The translations under genes were made by a program, and so were the position numbers. A stretch of 15,072 nucleotides of DNA from a virus. Taxonomy: Duplodnaviria; Heunggongvirae; Uroviricota; Caudoviricetes. The stretch is taken from IMG/VR virus record IMGVR_UViG_3300029862_000313. One strand, given 5' to 3'. This document shows positions 1 to 8,414 of the stretch, in pieces (positions within the stretch are counted from its first letter, which is position 1; each line of letters begins with the position of its first letter). Under the pieces are notes generated by a model, which saw only the letters and a program-made list of their open reading frames with translations, did not search any database and had not been told where the DNA came from.

Positions 1-1228
<1,228 letters not shown>

Positions 1229-1240
1229 TTATCTGTGAAC

Positions 1241-2131
1241 TCAGGCTGCCAGATCATCGTTTCCGATGGAAGCATAATAAGCTTTTTCTGCTTCTGCCGG
1301 AGGAGTATGGCCCAGCCTTTCCAGCAATCGTCGATTGTTATACCAGTCCACCCACGTGAGTGTGGCCAGTTCCACTTCTGCACGGTTTTTCCAGCTCTTA
1401 CGGTGTATTACCTCCGCTTTGTAAAGACCATTGATGCTCTCCGCCATCGCGTTGTCATACGAGTCGCCTGTACTTCCTGTTGATGCCAGTAATCCGGCTT
1501 CCTTAAGCCGCTGTGTGTAGGCCAGCGATACATACTGAGAACCTTTATCACTGTGATGGACCGTGCCGGACGGTCGACGGGCCCATAACGCCTGCTCCAG
1601 TGCATCCAGCACGAATGTCGTCTCCATGGACGATGAGACCCGCCACCCCACAATGTATCCGGCAAACACATCAATGATGAACGCCACATAGACGAAGCCC
1701 TGCCATGTGCTGACGTAAGTAAAATCAGCCACCCACAGCTGGTCAGGTCGTTCTGCCACGAACTGACGGTTTACGCGGTCGCCTGCGGCAACGGCTTTCC
1801 GGCTGATGGTCGTACGGACCTTTTTACCCCGGAGAACACCGGCAAGTCCCATAACCGCCATGAGACGTGCCACAGTGCATCTGGCCACTCTGATACCTTC
1901 CCGTAACAACTGACGCCAGACTTTACGCACACCGTATACCTTGTGATTTTCATCGTATACGCGCTGTATCTCTTTCTTCAGCCAGTCATCGCGCTGCGCA
2001 CGGGCACTGCGTTTATCCGGATGATGTCGCTGTTGCTGACAGTGGTAATACGTTGACGGGGCAATATGCAGTTCGCTGCATAGCGGTCCGACCCCGTACT
2101 GCTCACGCAGCTTATCCAGCAGTGGCATCAT
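1241..2131 (-). CDS. IS629 transposase OrfB (DDE catalytic domain), normally expressed as OrfAB fusion by -1 frameshift
   Basis: 296-aa ORF with DDE-type integrase-core features (WVADFTYV..., HSDKGSQY..., [15 protein letters not shown]). Overlaps OrfA by 4 nt at the A-run. Confidence 0.9.
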
Positions 2132-2454
2132 TTTTTCCAGAGGCGGTCGAACTCCGCCTTCGCAAAATAAGCGGAAGCCTGGCGAAGGATATCGTTACTG
2201 CGGCGCAGTTCACGATTTTCACGTTCCAGCTCTTTCAGACGCTGACGTTCAGCGGTGGTGAGCCCTCCATCACCGCCCCCGGTATCCCGCTCATGCTGGC
2301 GAACCCAGACACGCAGAGTCTCCGGCGTACAGCCAATCTTTGGAGCAATGGAACAAATTGTCGCCCATTGTGAGTCATATTCGCCCTGACTTTCCAGAAC
2401 CATACGGACTGCCCGTTGACGGACTTCAGGGGAAAAACGAGTATTTTTAGTCAT
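2128..2454 (-). CDS. IS629 transposase OrfA (HTH DNA-binding part)
   Basis: 108-aa ORF with leucine-zipper-like C-terminus ([19 protein letters not shown]). Ends in an A6 run overlapping the OrfB start, typical of an IS3-family -1 frameshift window. Confidence 0.9.
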
Positions 2455-2839
2455 CCTGTTTACCTCTTTCTCAGGAAGTTTAGTCTCCAGGATTCCCGGG
2501 GCGGTTCACCTAGTCAGACACTCAGATGTAGTGCTCCGCAGCGGCATGCGGGGGAATACAAAAACTCGGACAAAATTGGGCCCTCCTTTTTGAATCACTC
2601 GCGGGGATGTAGTTATTAATACATGGGAAAAGATCTGTTTTCAAATCCAACATTATATGGTTTCAATACCACGGGGTGGCTATGTGGCTATGTGTTTCTC
2701 ATTATTATTTACAATCTACTGTAATCGCTCCGAACGCAAATGCGTCAATACTCGAATCAACTGATCATCCTGCCACGACTGAAATCTCAAATAGGCCGTT
2801 TCTCAAGTAAGAGATTTTGAATGCATTATTGGCTACTGA

Positions 2840-2868
2840 AATAAAAAACCCAGCGCCAACTGGGTTCA
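2840..2868 (-). terminator. Rho-independent terminator downstream of the 164-aa secreted-protein gene
   Basis: AACCCAG (2847..2853) pairs with CTGGGTT (2860..2866). On the - strand transcript the hairpin is followed by a U-run (A-run 2841..2847 on +). Confidence 0.55.
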
Positions 2869-2883
2869 TATGAAATTTTTTTG

Positions 2884-3378
2884 TCATTTCCAATTGCAAG
2901 ACTGTGAAATTTTTTCCACAACCTTATCAATCTCAGACAAGTCAAACTCAACTACTTGCATAGTTGATCCATAAGGTTCAAACCCAAAAATAGCTTTTTT
3001 ATGCTTAGCCAAGGTCTTTATAAATTGTATTGGTTGTGGAGCAAATGCAGAATCACCGCCTTCCCCACCTCCCCAAGCACTCTTGACCGGCTTTCCGCCA
3101 TCTAACCGCACTGTAATTCTTGGGTTGTCCGAACCCATATAATCATTGAATGATAAATAGGCATCTGTTTTGTTATCACTACAACGCAACACCAGTGAAG
3201 TTGCACGATCAGTACCTGCTTTGTTATATGAATCTGGTGATAAATTAAGAGCCACAAAGTCAGTCTGGTCAGTCATTTTATTTATCTCAGACTTTGTTAT
3301 CCACGACCCTAACTTCTCTACACCAGCATTTGCAGTAAACGAGGCACTTATGACAAAGGCTATAATAAATTTTCTCAT
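2884..3378 (-). CDS. Secreted protein of unknown function, 164 aa, N-terminal signal peptide (cargo gene in AT-rich segment)
   Basis: Signal peptide MRKFIIAFVISASFTANA followed by a hydrophilic mature domain with a Gly-rich patch (WGGGEGG). Low-GC gene in low-GC flanks with its own terminator. No family recognised. Confidence 0.6.
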   Translation of the reverse strand: MRKFIIAFVISASFTANAGVEKLGSWITKSEINKMTDQTDFVALNLSPDSYNKAGTDRATSLVLRCSDNKTDAYLSFNDYMGSDNPRITVRLDGGKPVKSAWGGGEGGDSAFAPQPIQFIKTLAKHKKAIFGFEPYGSTMQVVEFDLSEIDKVVEKISQSCNWK

Positions 3379-3524
3379 AACCCTATCTCCTTGGATTTAA
3401 AGAACTAAATATTATCAAGTCTCTTGCCACTAGAAAACCCACTTTATTTCCAAACTCTGATGGCATTCCTGAAAATCCGCTTCATACTCACTTGCCCCGC
3501 CCTATCATCCTGAGTAGCTAACCG

Positions 3525-3698
3525 TTAAACAAACGTTCGCCAGACCTTACCATCAATGACCAGGATTCCTGCCCGCGCCATTTTTGCCGCAGCCTGATTT
3601 ATGCTGGTTAATGTCACACCTGTTGTCGCAGCAACGTCCGGCGCACAGAAGCTCTTGTGCGTCTCCAGATAATGAATAATTGCCTCTTTGCCCGTCAT
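3525..3698 (-). CDS. ren: Ren-like protein, C-terminally truncated/divergent (57 aa versus 96 aa in lambda)
   Basis: ATG overlaps the P stop codon (ATGA at 3695..3698 on -). My translation is MTGKEAIIHYLETHKSFCAPDVAATTGVTLTSINQAAAKMARAGILVIDGKVWRTFV*, matching remembered lambda Ren up to about residue 55 and then diverging into AT-rich DNA. This ORF is below the 60-aa cutoff of the ORF track. Confidence 0.6.
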   Translation of the reverse strand: MTGKEAIIHYLETHKSFCAPDVAATTGVTLTSINQAAAKMARAGILVIDGKVWRTFV

Positions 3699-4396
3699 AC
3701 AGTTGCTCCTTTCAGTCCGAACTTCGCTTTGATTTCTGCGATCTTCGCCAGAGCCTGTGCACGATTTAGAGGCCTACCGCCCATGACAGGAAGTTGTTTT
3801 ACTGGTTCAGGTATCGCCTCACCACGGTTAATTCGCGCGGTCATACAGGTCAGCTCATCGGCAGCTTTACGCCGTAATTCCGCGTCAGTCAGCGCATTGG
3901 CCCGCATGTTCTGGTACAGGTTGGTAACCAACCAGTAGTGCGCGTTTGATTTCCATGGATAAGACTCTGCGTCCGGATACAGGCCACGCTTCCGGCAATA
4001 CTCGTAAACCATATCAACCAGCTCGCTGGCGTTTGGCAGTCCGGCGGTAACGGATGCTTCTTCCCGGCACCAGGCGACAAACTGCCCGGGTGATGGCAGG
4101 AATGGTCGATTCTGCCGACGGGCTACGCGCATTCCTGCGTTAACCTGTTCCATTGTGGTGATCCCGTTTTCCCGGAAAGCCAGAACCCACTGGCGGCGGA
4201 TTTCGTTCAGTTCGTTCTGGTCCCGGTTAGCCAGGCTCGCCGGGAAAGTTGCCAGTAACTGGCTGAACACACCGTTGATGATCCGCGCTACCTGCTGTAC
4301 CTGCGGCTTTTCGTCGTACTGTTCCGGCATGTTGTTGGCGATCCGGCGCATCTGCTCACGGTCAAAGTTAACCATCTGTGCGGCGATGTTTTTCAT
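3695..4396 (-). CDS. P: Replication protein P (DnaB helicase loader), lambda-type
   Basis: 233 aa, near-identical to remembered lambda P (MKNIAAQMVNFDREQMRRIANNMPEQYDEKPQ...). Start overlaps the O stop. Confidence 0.95.
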   Translation of the reverse strand: MKNIAAQMVNFDREQMRRIANNMPEQYDEKPQVQQVARIINGVFSQLLATFPASLANRDQNELNEIRRQWVLAFRENGITTMEQVNAGMRVARRQNRPFLPSPGQFVAWCREEASVTAGLPNASELVDMVYEYCRKRGLYPDAESYPWKSNAHYWLVTNLYQNMRANALTDAELRRKAADELTCMTARINRGEAIPEPVKQLPVMGGRPLNRAQALAKIAEIKAKFGLKGATV

Positions 4397-5322
4397 AAAT
4401 CCACCCCATAAATCCAGTCAGTGTTTGTCAGGTCGAGTTTTGATTTTCCGGCTGTCACGCCAGCCTGTTGCTTGTTACGGTTGATTTCGAGTTGGGTCCA
4501 CTTGTCGCGGAGTTTGGCCGGACTTAGCACGTTACCGGACCAGAAGTTGTCCTGGCATGCCCAGCGGAACAGCACGCACATGTCGCGGTGGTTACGTCCG
4601 TCACGTTCACGCATCAGGCGGATATCGTTAGCCCACCCTGCAAAATTCGGTTTTCTGGCTGATGGCGCGATGGTCTTCACCATGTCAAACATCCACTCTG
4701 CGGCGGTCAGGTCTTCTGCTGTCCCCCACCTGCTGCCGCTCTGAATTGCAGCATCTGGTTTCTCCACAGGAAGATCGTTTTCTGGTTGGTCAGAGGATTC
4801 GCCAGAATTCTCGGACGAAAAAGGTTTTATATTGTCTTTTGTTAGTTTGTCTTTTGTGTTTACCTGATTCGGGTAAACGCCTTTACCTGATTTGGGTAAA
4901 CTTTTCTTACCTGATTCAGGTAAATTTACCTCTTTCAGGTAAACTTTATTTTTCTTACCTGATTCGGGTAATGTTGACCATTCACTGACCACATTATTAA
5001 TGCCGATATTCCGCCCGCTCTGAATAAGAATCCCACGCTTTACCAGAACGCTTTTTGCAGCAGAACACTTGTGCGGCAATATCCCGGTCAACTCGGAAAG
5101 TTGCTCGTTGCTCACCCAATCCAGTTTTTTATTAAAGCCATATGTTTTGCGCATGACAGCCAGGAAGACCAGAAGCTGGTGCTGTGTTAATCCGGCCAGC
5201 ATCACAGCTTCCAGCAACTCATTTGCAATGCGCGTATAACCATCATCGAGATCTGCCACGCGCGGCTCCTTTTGTGCCGCATCCGGCACTGGAAAATTGA
5301 ATATCTCAGCAGTGTTTGCCAT
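4393..5322 (-). CDS. O: Replication initiator O, mosaic: non-lambda N-terminal iteron-binding domain, lambda-like C-terminal P-interacting domain
   Basis: Alignment to lambda O begins at MANTAEIFNF (lambda MTNTAKILNF), and GGAGG lies 6-10 nt upstream of the ATG at 5320..5322. The track ORF extends to 5412 (ATGA overlap with upstream gene) but the extra 30 aa have no lambda counterpart. Iterons are embedded in the coding sequence as in lambda ori. Confidence 0.85.
   Translation of the reverse strand: MANTAEIFNFPVPDAAQKEPRVADLDDGYTRIANELLEAVMLAGLTQHQLLVFLAVMRKTYGFNKKLDWVSNEQLSELTGILPHKCSAAKSVLVKRGILIQSGRNIGINNVVSEWSTLPESGKKNKVYLKEVNLPESGKKSLPKSGKGVYPNQVNTKDKLTKDNIKPFSSENSGESSDQPENDLPVEKPDAAIQSGSRWGTAEDLTAAEWMFDMVKTIAPSARKPNFAGWANDIRLMRERDGRNHRDMCVLFRWACQDNFWSGNVLSPAKLRDKWTQLEINRNKQQAGVTAGKSKLDLTNTDWIYGVDL
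4857..4975. repeat. Replication origin iterons inside O: five copies of an 18-19 bp palindromic repeat TTACCYNWTTYRGGTAAA, flanked by an AT-rich stretch (4800..4860)
   Basis: Copies at 4861..4878, 4884..4901, 4909..4926, 4928..4945 and 4957..4974 (e.g. TACCTGATTCGGGTAAAC). Adjacent AT-rich tract aaaaggttttatattgtcttttgttagtttgtcttttgtg. Architecture mirrors lambda ori (iterons plus AT-rich region within O) but the iteron sequence differs from lambda's. Confidence 0.8.
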
Positions 5323-5408
5323 AATTCCTCCCGCAATGAGTGTGTTACGATTTGCACCTGAAAGTCGGTTCTGTTCCCGCAGACCGACTTTCGCCATTTC
5401 TGAACCTG

Positions 5409-5948
5409 TCATATTGCCCCCAGCATGGTGGTCACCATCGCCATTAATGGACCAGCCAGATCCGGGTCCACACGAAACATCGACACAATACCTTCACTCA
5501 TTTCCTTCAGTTTCTGGTGGCGTGGTGCGTTGAGAATGACAGCCTGTTTTGCCTCACTGAGTTCCTTTTCCATTTCAGCCAACCGAGTCATGAAGCTATC
5601 CTGCTCAACCAGGTAACCGCGATATTCCAGCGGTAGTACCGCCAGAATTGCCGGGGTCAGTTCACGCACGTTATTTCGGTATTTTTCAGAATCGAATTTG
5701 TTATCGAGGAAGCGGAACAGCTTCTGGCGTGCACGGCTGACATCATCAGGGAAATCGATGGTGCCGTCGCCCTGCTCCCGATACTCATTCACAATGAGTG
5801 CGGCAACGACATCCTGATTATCTACAGCCGACCAGGCGCGGACGGCATCACGGATTTTTTCGTGGCCTGGAGCTTGTTTTGTTTGAGAACGATTTATCAC
5901 CGCAGTCGGAATAAATCCGCTAGTCTGTTGGTATGTAAGTGGTTGCAT
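5409..5948 (-). CDS. CII-position regulatory protein, 179 aa, possibly YdaT-family (functional analogue of CII)
   Basis: Sits between cro-like and O where lambda has cII. AAGGAG RBS 7 nt upstream of ATG at 5946..5948. Family assignment rests on position and on the Cro partner resembling the YdaS type; the sequence was not confirmed. Confidence 0.5.
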   Translation of the reverse strand: MQPLTYQQTSGFIPTAVINRSQTKQAPGHEKIRDAVRAWSAVDNQDVVAALIVNEYREQGDGTIDFPDDVSRARQKLFRFLDNKFDSEKYRNNVRELTPAILAVLPLEYRGYLVEQDSFMTRLAEMEKELSEAKQAVILNAPRHQKLKEMSEGIVSMFRVDPDLAGPLMAMVTTMLGAI

Positions 5949-6017: not shown

Positions 6018-6248
6018 TTAAGCTGCGTTCTTTTCGGTGTGTGGAAACAACTTCGGAAGATCCGGGCGAATCTGGTATGCCTTCACAACTCCACCAGTAG
6101 CCGTAACAATGCTGCCGACATGTTCAGGGGATACCTTTGCTTTGTTGTGAAGCCACTTATAGACGGCCTGCTGTGAAACTTCGCAGGCATCGCCTAGTTT
6201 CTTTTGTGAACCAACGATATTGATCGCTGTTTTGATTGCTGGGTTCAT
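6018..6248 (-). CDS. cro: Cro-like HTH transcriptional regulator (YdaS/Cro type), 76 aa
   Basis: Divergent from cI across an operator-rich 104-bp intergenic region. HTH-like segment (QKKLGDACEVSQQAVYKWL) and a C-terminal YQIRPDL motif. Confidence 0.7.
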   Translation of the reverse strand: MNPAIKTAINIVGSQKKLGDACEVSQQAVYKWLHNKAKVSPEHVGSIVTATGGVVKAYQIRPDLPKLFPHTEKNAA

Positions 6249-6352
6249 AACAACCTCCGTGGTTAATCCGAATCAAGATTAAAACTATGGTTGTTTTTAG
6301 TCAACAACCATTTTCGTTTGATGAAATAAAACCTTGGTTGTACATTTGATCT
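6249..6352. promoter_or_regulatory. OR-like operator/promoter region between divergent cro-like and cI genes
   Basis: Inverted repeat ATGGTTGTT-N6-AACAACCAT at 6287..6310. Additional AACAACC/GGTTGT motifs at 6249..6255 and 6334..6340. The same ACAAC/GTTGT half-sites recur at the OL-like region near 7784..7847. Confidence 0.6.
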
Positions 6353-7042
6353 ATGAAAACAACACTCTCAGAAAGACTTAAAGAAGCCAGATTAGCGCGA
6401 GGCCTTACACAAAAGGCGCTTGGGGATTTGGTCGGGGTTAGCCAGGCTGCTATTCAGAAAATCGAAACAGGGAAAGCTAACCAAACAACTAAAATCGTGG
6501 AGATCGCGAACGCTTTGGGTGTGCGCGCAGAATGGTTATCTTCTGGCGTTGGAAATATGTCAGACAGTACAGTGCAACCAATACAATCAACTGTCAGCCA
6601 TTCCAAATACTTCAAAATTGACGTTCTTGATATAGAAGTCAGTGCCGGGCCAGGTGTAATCAACCGTGAGTTTGTAGAAGTTCTACGCTCGGTTGAGTAC
6701 TCGTTTGACGATGCTCGTCACATGTTCGATGGCAGGAAGGCGGAAAATATCCGCATCATTAACGTGCGAGGTGACAGCATGTCAGGGACGATCGAACCAG
6801 GTGACCTGCTGTTCGTTGATATCACTGTTAAATCTTTCGACGGTGATGGCATCTATGCGTTTCTGTACGACGACACTGCCCATGTAAAACGTCTTCAAAT
6901 GATGAAGGATAAGCTGCTGGTTATCTCTGATAACAAGAGCTACTCGCCGTGGGACCCGATCGAGAAAGACGAGATGAACCGGGTGTTCATATTCGGTAAG
7001 GTCATTGGAAGCATGCCGCAGACGTACAGGAAGCATGGTTAA
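6353..7042 (+). CDS. cI: CI-type prophage repressor, N-terminal HTH plus C-terminal S24 (LexA-like) autopeptidase domain; not lambda immunity
   Basis: 229 aa. HTH (LTQKALGDLVGVSQAAIQKIETG), candidate Ala-Gly cleavage site (EVSAGPG), Ser nucleophile in GDSMSGTIEPGD and Lys in HVKRL. Unlike remembered lambda cI. Confidence 0.85.
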   Translation: MKTTLSERLKEARLARGLTQKALGDLVGVSQAAIQKIETGKANQTTKIVEIANALGVRAEWLSSGVGNMSDSTVQPIQSTVSHSKYFKIDVLDIEVSAGPGVINREFVEVLRSVEYSFDDARHMFDGRKAENIRIINVRGDSMSGTIEPGDLLFVDITVKSFDGDGIYAFLYDDTAHVKRLQMMKDKLLVISDNKSYSPWDPIEKDEMNRVFIFGKVIGSMPQTYRKHG

Positions 7043-7271
7043 TTTATCTACGACTTAAGGGAGCGAAGGTTAAGGTTTATACCACTCGGATTAGATATTG
7101 CACTAAATTCTCTATAAGAACGCCAAATCTGTTTGCATATTTCAGTAAATATTCTCGTTGTTAGCTGAGATTTGTTGCTACTGTCAGCAAAATGTCCCCC
7201 TATCTCGTAGCGGTTTTTATTTCGAATCATTATGTTAAGATGTTTCTGATTATAATGAATGGAAACATAAA

Positions 7272-7652
7272 ATGAGAAAAATCCTAATCGCTGCCATGAT
7301 GGCATCTGTATTGGCTGGGTGTGCTTCTTCAGGCAACCAGCAACTCAAAAATGAAACTGAAATTAGTGTCCAGTCTAAACTTCAGGAAGGTAAAACAACC
7401 AAGAATGAGGTTAAATCTTACTTTGGTTCTCCTGATGCTGTTTCATATACTGACAGTGGAAACGAGATCTGGAAGTACGCCTTTGCAAAAGTAAAAGTTA
7501 ATGGCACCACTTTTATTCCATTCTATGGATTATTCCATAATGGAACGAACGGTACGAAAAAAGAACTTACTATTCTTTTTAACGATGACACGATTAAGAA
7601 ATACACAATGTCAGAAACCCAAATAAACTCGAAATCAGGTTGGGCTGACTGA
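7272..7652 (+). CDS. Lipoprotein of unknown function, 126 aa, in the rexAB/sieB-equivalent position downstream of cI
   Basis: Signal peptide with lipobox LAGC (Cys18). Preceded by a 229-bp AT-rich spacer and followed by a hairpin terminator. Low GC relative to neighbouring phage genes. Confidence 0.7.
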   Translation: MRKILIAAMMASVLAGCASSGNQQLKNETEISVQSKLQEGKTTKNEVKSYFGSPDAVSYTDSGNEIWKYAFAKVKVNGTTFIPFYGLFHNGTNGTKKELTILFNDDTIKKYTMSETQINSKSGWAD

Positions 7653-7660
7653 TAATCATA

Positions 7661-7690
7661 CCCGGCAACCGCGCCGGGTTTTCTTTTCCT
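7661..7690 (+). terminator. Rho-independent terminator after the lipoprotein gene
   Basis: CCCGGC (7661..7666) pairs with GCCGGG (7673..7678), followed by TTTTCTTTTCC. Confidence 0.7.
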
Positions 7691-7779
7691 CCCCCTCATA
7701 ACTCATACCGTCCAAAAAACCACCACACCTCACTTCAGTTATCGCTATGCGATGCAAGTCACAAAATAAATCCATCCTA

Positions 7780-7860
7780 AATACAACCAGTTATATTTAA
7801 AACAACCGACAAAACAACTTTTGTTGTTGACGATAAAACAACTATAGTTTTAAATAAATT
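7780..7860 (+). promoter_or_regulatory. OL/pL-like operator-promoter region driving the early operon toward gam-bet-exo
   Basis: Operator-like repeats ACAACC (7784..7789, 7802..7807) and palindrome ACAAC-TTTT-GTTGT (7814..7827). Candidate -35 TTGACG (7827..7832) with -10 TTAAAT (7850..7855) at 17-bp spacing. Orientation matches the downstream + strand early genes. Confidence 0.5.
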
Positions 7861-7910
7861 CATCGCAACGACACAACGATACGGTAACCACCTGTTTCAC
7901 CGTTGCGATG
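7861..7910 (+). promoter_or_regulatory. Structured 5' leader: perfect 10-bp inverted repeat (CATCGCAACG ... CGTTGCGATG) with 30-nt loop, immediately downstream of the pL-like promoter
   Basis: 7861..7870 is the exact reverse complement of 7901..7910. Further GC-rich self-complementary segments follow to about 8045 (e.g. GTCGC-N9-GCGAC at 8025..8043). Function not established. Confidence 0.35.
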
Positions 7911-8132
7911 ACCGCTTAGATCCGCAGTTTGAATTTCAGCAGGCTTCGGGGAGTGCGAGGGGTGAAGCGGACGCGTGAACGTCGGTGTGACCAGCTGAAA
8001 TCAACTCAACACTTCATACCTCAGTCGCTTCAACGAGGCGACTTAGTTATGACAACCGGCGGCCATCCACCGCCTGAATACGCGCAGAAGTCTCTATATG
8101 TTCAGCAGCCCAGCTTACGGGCAGGAGTTTTT

Positions 8133-8339
8133 ATGGTTCATCAACATTACGGAACGCAGACCGTTAATCGAGGTGCGGTCATGCCAGGAATGCTGGTCAA
8201 ACACAAAGATGGTACCTGGACTGCATCAGCTAATTTACGCGGACGGCTTTATCTGCATCGCGGCATCGAGCGCACTTATACCCGTGATTTGCTCGTGGAA
8301 GTTTTTCTCGACGGACGCGGTAACGGCCTGAATCGCTAA
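8133..8339 (+). CDS. Hypothetical early protein (68 aa from the AGGAG-associated start; the ORF is open from 7929, 136 aa)
   Basis: Strong RBS AGGAG (8123..8127) 5 nt before ATG at 8133. Occupies the position of lambda N..kil but shows no similarity to either. The stop at 8337..8339 abuts the point where lambda-like sequence resumes (8340). The longer ORF has an Arg-rich N-terminus but no evident RBS. Confidence 0.35.
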
Positions 8340-8414
8340 TCCCCTTTCCTGTTTTCCTAATCAGCCTGGCATTTCGCGGGCGATATTTTCACAGCCATTT
8401 TCAGGAGTTCAGCC

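Follow-up and report, generated by a model that had tools for sequence, protein, structure and literature searches.

A BamE-fold lipoprotein gene as optional cargo after cI in a lambda-like Escherichia coli prophage, and the promoter/leader that it has in common with unrelated prophage lipoprotein genes

This study revealed that the gene located directly after the cI-type repressor gene of a lambda-like Escherichia coli prophage is a phage 'moron', a horizontally acquired and optional insertion. The DNA analysed comprises 15,072 nucleotides (IMG/VR virus record IMGVR_UViG_3300029862_000313) from the early region of this prophage, and this whole stretch is referred to as the window. The gene encodes a lipoprotein of 126 residues, which belongs to a distinct and divergent subfamily of the BamE/BLIP fold and is not a subunit of the beta-barrel assembly machinery (BAM). 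The family is already present in databases, where it is uncharacterised and usually misnamed BamE. What is new here is the finding of a BamE-fold lipoprotein as cargo of a prophage immunity region, together with a common promoter/leader that precedes unrelated lipoprotein cargo. By analogy, the protein could protect the lysogen at the level of the envelope, the most likely form being superinfection exclusion through receptor masking or blocked DNA passage, a reading to which we assign a probability of approximately 0.4.

The evidence for an optional insertion came from a search of 5,426 complete E. coli genomes with positions 6500-8340. Among prophages that agree with this one in cI (~95% identity) and in the PL/kil region, three types of slot were seen: empty, occupied by two other hypothetical genes, or occupied by the lipoprotein gene. 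The empty junction between cI and the terminator was found in 758 complete genomes, and the lipoprotein allele in 69-78 (78/5,426, ~1.4%), being prophage-borne in all of them. When the three slot types were aligned, homology ended exactly at the stop codon of cI and restarted at the terminator hairpin. The gene thus displays the features of a moron, namely sharp presence/absence boundaries, a deviant GC content and a putative promoter of its own. A preliminary description of this DNA had proposed a low-GC insertion acquired horizontally, and the coexistence of the same cI allele with an empty slot, with other genes or with the lipoprotein gene bears this out. The features of the slot and its borders are as follows.

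6353-7042, + strand: cI-type repressor gene, 229 residues (Pfam HTH_3, 5e-13, and Peptidase_S24, 1e-18; PHROGs phrog_4, transcriptional repressor, 9e-73).
7043-7232, + strand: AT-rich non-coding left part of the cargo, GC ~0.34, absent from the empty-slot allele.
7233-7271, + strand: putative promoter/leader module with an extended -10 element (TG at 7233-7234, TAAGAT at 7236-7241).
7242-7266, + strand: imperfect palindrome GTTTCTGATTATAATGAATGGAAAC, within the leader.
7261-7263, + strand: Shine-Dalgarno sequence GGA, within the leader.
7272-7652, + strand: lipoprotein gene, 126 residues; signal peptide residues 1-16 (7272-7319), lipobox LAGC (7311-7322), codon of Cys17 (7320-7322).
7660-7689, + strand: Rho-independent terminator; hairpin at 7660-7679 with 7 bp, of which 6 are G-C, followed by the T-run TTTTCTTTT.
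7790-7870, + strand: putative PL/OL-equivalent leftward early promoter/operator, with AACAAC...GTTGTT palindromes read from the sequence.

With regard to the terminator, the preliminary description was right that a strong hairpin follows the gene, but the element is not specific to it. A terminator lies 3' of the stop codon in all aligned contexts of the gene except Serratia, and the one in the window is common to empty-slot and alternative-cargo prophages. As it is kept whether or not the gene is present, it belongs to the phage backbone and marks the end of the cI operon. No terminator-like site was found between cI and the lipoprotein gene, so that co-transcription of the two in lysogens, by read-through from the repressor promoter, is plausible by analogy with lambda cI-rexA-rexB. 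On the other side, the palindromes at 7790-7870 resemble those of the divergent cro/cI promoters (6287-6311), and this region probably forms the right-hand limit of the immunity-region slot.

Other occupants of the slot were also observed. In E. coli strain 7CC, the alternative cargo is a pair of genes encoding proteins of 89 and 146 residues (locus L059, 923-1641; phrog_4231 and phrog_3556). The Citrobacter slot (locus L008, 7003-7911) contains a gene for a 302-residue protein (phrog_4506) upstream of the lipoprotein gene. A Scandinavium prophage slot (locus L021, 3278-4932) holds two genes with weak matches to the candidate defence pair PDC-M66 A/B, and the lipoprotein gene adjoins them.

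The lipoprotein open reading frame (ORF) is a real, selected gene. Its presence after cI, as initially described, was confirmed, and so was the AT-rich spacer of 229 bp between the cI stop codon and the ATG (7043-7271, GC 0.341). The N-terminus MRKILIAAMMASVLAGC comprises a basic n-region, a hydrophobic core and the lipobox L-A-G-C, which ends in Cys17. The lipoprotein call rests on the lipobox rule, [LVI][ASTVI][GAS]C with the cysteine within ~15-35 residues, which the parse MRK-ILIAAMMASV-LAGC fits. Cys17 is invariant across 60 distant homologues (29-61% identity). It is followed by alanine at position +2 and serine at position +3, and as residue +2 is alanine and not aspartate, the Lol rule predicts delivery to the outer membrane. 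The gene has a GC content of 0.381 and a third-position value (GC3) of 0.354, compared with a GC content of 0.475 for the window and GC3 values of 0.51-0.61 for cI, bet and exo. Every copy seen has an intact ORF, and among the 78 carrier E. coli genomes, 71 encode a protein of 99-100% identity. Across genera, the nonsynonymous divergence (dN) is only 0.10-0.21 while the synonymous divergence (dS) is saturated, which indicates purifying selection; in the two pairs for which it was computable, dN/dS was ~0.05-0.06. These values, together with the conservation of the promoter, of the Shine-Dalgarno sequence and of the lipobox, make it very improbable that the gene is a functionless hitch-hiking remnant carried passively by a variable slot, even though it is a minority allele in E. 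coli (~70 genomes, compared with 758 in which the slot is empty) and its spacer resembles degraded sequence. Within that spacer, no homologues of 7043-7232 were found, the overlapping 85-residue ORF on the minus strand (7048-7305) having had no separate search, and blastn and tblastx comparisons with other loci gave no match upstream of spacer position 177 (window position 7219).

The mature domain of 110 residues consists of two helices followed by a three-stranded sheet, an alpha-alpha-beta-beta-beta arrangement of the BamE/BLIP type. In PHROGs, the protein matches phrog_3135, a family of unknown function (2.9e-48; residues 1-124 against profile positions 1-114 of 114). Its close homologues number more than 200, and the wider family comprises 854 clusters at 50% identity (E<1e-3). 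The preliminary description had pointed to a possible BamE/SmpA-OmlA-like domain, and such a relationship was found at the superfamily level. The window protein reaches 21.8 bits against Pfam BamE, which is below the gathering cut-off of 23.2, while 49 of 60 distant family members match this model at E<0.01 (best 4e-9). Alignment of the family profile with E. coli BamE by hhalign gave a probability of 91% (E 9e-7) at ~22-24% identity. An AlphaFold2 model, with a predicted local distance difference test (pLDDT) score of ~90 in its core, retrieved BamE from the Protein Data Bank (PDB) with a Foldseek probability of 0.99, and BamE was among the top structural matches. The best matches in BFVD were SmpA/OmlA lipoproteins of the Pseudomonas phages PP9W2 and B3.

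Several features set the family apart from BamE. The profile alignment contains a 14-residue insertion relative to BamE, which corresponds to the conserved hairpin FIPFYGLFHNG at residues ~76-91. The RPDINQG segment of BamE is placed opposite a gap; this segment includes the BamD-contact residues I32 and Q34. Adjacent to the lipid anchor, the family shows a conserved C-A-S-x-G-N segment, with an invariant G21-N22 of its own, and these two residues could be a shifted equivalent of the BamD-contact segment. A true BamE orthologue, as most RefSeq names would have it, was rejected in view of the sub-threshold Pfam score, the prophage-borne occurrence in 1.4% of genomes and the unaligned BamD-contact segment.

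The identical E. coli protein WP_001226568.1 is called 'SEN1984 family lipoprotein' in newer RefSeq records, and no 'SEN1984 family' model was found among the NCBIfam models searched. Most RefSeq records of the family say 'outer membrane protein assembly factor BamE', and one says BamD. These BamE and BamD names are over-annotations arising from fold-level resemblance.

Two kinds of genomic context are found among relatives in prophages. In the first, the gene again follows a repressor gene. It lies between the repressor gene and kilR in Citrobacter prophages and also follows the repressor gene in Pseudocitrobacter, Pseudescherichia, Enterobacter and Scandinavium, with repressors down to 23% identity. 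Salmonella phage S107 has a copy with 82% identity, which comes after cI and a split BstA abortive-infection gene (PADLOC, 9e-100). The sharing of the S107 slot with BstA supports the positional argument for a defence slot, and it substantiates the earlier suggestion that exclusion or abortive-infection genes are found at this position. In phage lambda, rexAB occupies the slot directly after cI. Considering BstA, the weak PDC-M66 A/B candidates of Scandinavium and lambda rexAB, the slot after cI is a defence hotspot.

In the second kind of context, the gene is associated with the tape-measure gene. It lies directly upstream of it in Serratia (71% identity), Klebsiella phage RAH1, Phytobacter and an unrelated Salinicola prophage, with one intervening ORF in Raoultella and several in Entomohabitans, and downstream of it in Buttiauxella. 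The region around the tape-measure gene also carries antirepressor, SocA/Panacea and YafO-like cargo. That the gene directly precedes the tape-measure gene in prophages of Serratia, Klebsiella and Salinicola raised the idea of a tail assembly chaperone, which was discarded: the lipobox cysteine is invariant, the fold is BamE-like, the region is a variable one with toxin-antitoxin-like and antirepressor genes, and one copy is downstream of the tape-measure gene.

In the Serratia prophages (loci L012-L015, 8381-8668), the stop codon of the lipoprotein gene overlaps the start codon of a 95-residue ORF in a TAATG-type arrangement. This ORF has no PHROG match, directly precedes the tape-measure gene and is absent from the E. 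coli context; it may encode a translationally coupled partner.

The last ~45 nt of the spacer are conserved across the genomic contexts of the gene, while the sequence further upstream is unrelated. In S107, these 45 nt have a second match (locus L017, 15774-15829) in the tail module, where they precede a gene for an unrelated 117-residue lipoprotein (phrog_7441). A scan of IMG/VR with TGTTARGATNNTTCYGATTNNAAT yielded at least 120 loci (L060-L179). Among the matches listed, to which the family counts and positions below also refer, 108 of the 109 ORFs that start no more than 45 nt downstream of the leader encode a lipobox. These ORFs fall into at least six unrelated lipoprotein families, the family of the window gene and at least five others:

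F1, 118 residues: 63 copies.
F2, BamE-like, the family of the window gene: 18 copies.
F3, 110 residues: 14 copies.
F4, 227 residues: 10 copies.
F5, 109 residues: 2 copies.
F6, 145 residues: 1 copy.

Nucleotide conservation starts at the TG of the extended -10 element (TGtTAAGAT) and stops just past ATGAAAAA. The consensus of 81 unique copies includes a -35-like TTGA at a spacing of 16 nt, and the distance from the motif to the ATG is 15 nt in 67 of the 81. The leader forms the imperfect palindrome GTTTCC-GATTG/CAATC-AAAGGAAAC. As an RNA, it folds no better than shuffled sequence (z -0.6 and -0.9), so an RNA hairpin or thermosensor finds no support, and the constraint on the palindrome is more likely to act at the DNA level. 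Its core, cTGAT-TGCA-ATCAA, resembles the FNR/CRP-family consensus TTGAT-N4-ATCAA; this serves as a lead only.

The families differ in their positions. All 18 BamE-like copies follow cI. F1 mostly adjoins the tape-measure gene and is sometimes found after cI, whereas F3 and F4 adjoin the tape-measure gene and can have an identical left flank, which points to allelic replacement between them. In complete E. coli genomes, the leader was found only with the BamE-like gene, and a derivation of the leader from a core E. coli gene was therefore discarded. Unrelated lipoproteins behind one expression module thus constitute interchangeable prophage cargo, which is housed in two slots, one after cI and the other around the tape-measure gene. 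Within the limits of the literature searched, no published account of a common promoter/leader before unrelated lipoprotein cargo was found.

With regard to function, expression in lysogens, sorting to the outer membrane, a protein-binding mode and an anti-phage role are suggested by the features described above, and the exclusion role by position and analogy. In a lysogen, transcripts that start at the repressor promoter would extend into the gene, and additional transcription would start at its own extended -10 promoter (TGtTAAGAT, 7233-7241). The product would be exported and lipidated on Cys17, and its destination through the Lol pathway would be the outer membrane, in the inner leaflet. 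On the side of this membrane that faces the periplasm, the lipoprotein could then bind another protein, and such binding would most likely either make a phage receptor inaccessible or keep the DNA of an incoming phage from crossing the periplasm. The gene is spread over several kinds of mobile elements, comprising prophages, Pseudomonas phages, in which a distant relative lies beside the integrase gene, and the Salmonella ROD21 island, which carries the family member SEN1984.

Several observations weigh against envelope-level exclusion. The argument from position is weakened by the fact that the slot also houses genes of unknown function, and both Lol sorting and processing by signal peptidase II are judged by rule. 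PADLOC-DB 2.0 gave zero families at E<=1, by which a known defence system was discounted, and a PHROGs search found no homology to known exclusion proteins. A literature search on BamE and phage yielded nothing on the function of the lipoprotein family, and the papers that name SEN1984 contain predictions only. The structural model has a mean pLDDT of 70, falling below 50 in the family-specific hairpin. Finally, relatives at 43-52% identity are found in ordinary chromosomal neighbourhoods in Celerinatantimonas, Halomonas pelophila, a Francisellaceae genome, a Nitrospirae genome and Pannonibacter indicus. Their neighbours include uppP-X-gcvT, which is conserved in two Celerinatantimonas species, MFS/MAPEG genes, TerC and a diguanylate cyclase. 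The ancestral role was therefore probably cellular and not anti-phage, and the phage gene has probably been captured from a cellular envelope lipoprotein family. The preliminary description had held that homology to a housekeeping lipoprotein family of unrelated function would speak against exclusion; the ordinary chromosomal setting of the distant relatives does so in part, as it argues against a dedicated anti-phage role.

One alternative is that the protein is an orphan immunity or inhibitor lipoprotein, which binds and neutralises an antibacterial protein acting in the periplasm. The target could be a type VI secretion system (T6SS) effector, a colicin/bacteriocin domain or a muralytic enzyme, for instance, and the lysogen would gain protection against competitors and not against phages. 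The fold matches to BtiO and BLIP, as well as BamE-like immunity proteins predicted in the literature, are consistent with this. However, these structural matches are at the fold level only, no toxin gene adjoins the lipoprotein gene in any context examined, and immunity proteins are described as evolving rapidly, which does not fit an identity of 70-85% between genera. We consider this role unlikely.

A second alternative, which appears about equally improbable, is that the protein acts on the host envelope as a modulating paralogue of BamE. Such a protein would dock on BAM or on another outer-membrane assembly or stress pathway and alter the assembly of outer-membrane proteins or envelope robustness as a fitness or virulence factor, for example by favouring phage-encoded barrels such as Lom, an OmpD-like porin or an OmpT-like protease. 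The profile match to E. coli BamE, the 49 family members recognised by Pfam BamE and the rank of BamE among the structural matches agree with this alternative. The complete related phage PhiR26_1 encodes three outer-membrane barrel proteins, a family member resides on the Salmonella ROD21 pathogenicity island, and the chromosomal relatives suggest a cellular envelope role. Nevertheless, the window protein itself scores below the Pfam threshold, the BamD-contact segment RPDINQG aligns to a gap, and the host already possesses bamE. Moreover, a promoter/leader common to unrelated lipoproteins argues for a role that is not tied to BAM.

Returning to envelope exclusion, the pattern of interchangeable cargo suits specificity variants of one envelope role. 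A broader proposal is that enterobacterial temperate phages have a dedicated and commonly regulated lipoprotein cargo system, in which a 45-nt module, TGtTAAGAT-GTTTCCGATTGCAATCAAAGGAAAC-ATAAA-ATG, would drive at least six interchangeable families in two fixed slots. The window protein would be one allele, the alleles would be envelope-exclusion specificity variants, and they would be co-regulated through the palindrome by a DNA-binding protein of the host or the phage. We regard this proposal as tentative and rather doubtful as a whole.

The remaining features of the window are consistent with a lambda-like prophage and are given below.

Gene order along the + strand: P/O, YdaT-type cII-like, YdaS-type cro, cI, lipoprotein gene, terminator, leftward promoter region, kil, gam, bet, exo, xis, int.
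3695-5412, minus strand: P and O.
6018-6248, minus strand: YdaS-type cro.

Escherichia phage PhiR26_1 (PV340555.1) is 100% identical to the window at 7043-7700 and 98.9% identical at 7700-8140. The C-terminus of its J protein shows 46% identity to lambda J. A literature search for PV340555 and PhiR26_1 gave nothing, the matches for PhiR26 being to an unrelated Pseudomonas phage.

The left end of the window contains chromosomal genes, cbrC (1-588) and a truncated yieK (650-1012, minus strand), which abut an insertion sequence (IS) of the IS3 family (1241-2454, with an ALIL frameshift pseudoknot at 2057-2173). The other side of this element abuts prophage DNA. Positions 1-3700 were contiguous in none of the complete E. 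coli genomes of the collection, which indicates that this genome has an IS-mediated rearrangement or deletion that truncates the prophage at its late-gene side. A second low-GC accessory gene (2884-3378, minus strand, GC ~0.36-0.41) is located just past ren and P and encodes a secreted protein of 164 residues, named 'type VI secretion system-associated protein TagO' in RefSeq. PhiR26_1 has the defence gene PD-lambda-1 in the same slot.

Between the leftward promoter and kil (7870-8134), no gene for an N-like antiterminator was found, and PHROGs matches only Kil. The untranslated leader before kil contains a two-hairpin element, especially at 8014-8074 (-25.8 kcal/mol, z -5.3). An unannotated part of phage HK225 shares 95% identity with positions 8013-8074, and phi80 matches as well. 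This element may be a put-like RNA antiterminator. A long ORF with a TTG start (7929-8339) has the arginine-rich N-terminal extension RLRGVRGVKRTRERR.

Few accessory genes are known to alter how a lysogen encounters phages or host defences; those for prophage lipoproteins like Cor, Llp and Bor belong to them, and most such genes are annotated as hypothetical. If the window protein does block a receptor or DNA entry, it would represent a new structural class of superinfection-exclusion protein and a probe for those events of infection that take place on the inner face of the outer membrane. The common promoter/leader provides a sequence handle for finding prophage lipoprotein cargo genes and points to a common regulator.

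Among known systems, the closest in fold is BamE (SmpA/OmlA, PF04355), the lipoprotein subunit of BAM. The window protein differs from it by the hairpin insertion, a C-terminal extension and the low identity of ~22-24%. BamE is encoded by a single-copy core gene, whereas the window gene is optional prophage cargo. SEN1984 of Salmonella Enteritidis, a 378-bp gene predicted to encode a BamE-like lipoprotein, belongs to the same family as the window protein (phrog_3135). It is located on an excisable genomic island, in contrast to the prophage immunity region occupied by the window gene.

Cor, Llp and the Lpp proteins of the mEp phages resemble the window protein in being small accessory lipoproteins encoded by phages, and relatives of the window gene are likewise found in tail-gene regions. 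Cor (phi80, N15, HK022) and Llp (T5) block the receptor of the phage that encodes them. The Cor/Llp-like domain considered in the preliminary description was not recovered: the match to Cor (phrog_1119) had an E value of 0.066 and was confined to the signal peptide (residues 1-29), and neither Llp nor Cor was among the listed matches of the PDB and BFVD fold searches. The Lpp proteins of mEp021 and mEp010 are prophage lipoproteins encoded in the tail region, which exclude OmpA- or LamB-dependent phages (PMC11893012). That of mEp021 comprises 72 residues, is rich in cysteine and is encoded downstream of J. The tblastn matches to the window protein included no mEp phage, and the mEp021 genome yielded no copy of the leader. 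The leader-associated lipoprotein families were also considered as homologues of the mEp021/mEp010 Lpp proteins and rejected, as no homology was found. The mEp lipoproteins are thus analogues only of the window protein.

Lambda rexAB and BstA of the Salmonella BTP1 type occupy the same slot as the window gene and probably have the same co-transcription with cI up to a shared terminator. They are, however, cytoplasmic or inner-membrane abortive-infection systems, whereas the window protein is a predicted exported lipoprotein without homology to them. Lambda Bor and Lom are similar to the window protein in being envelope proteins of lysogenic conversion with a promoter of their own and an atypical composition, and Bor, which PhiR26_1 also carries, is a small lipoprotein as well. 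The phenotype conferred by Bor is serum resistance rather than phage exclusion, and both Bor and Lom differ from the window protein in fold, in family and in genomic position.

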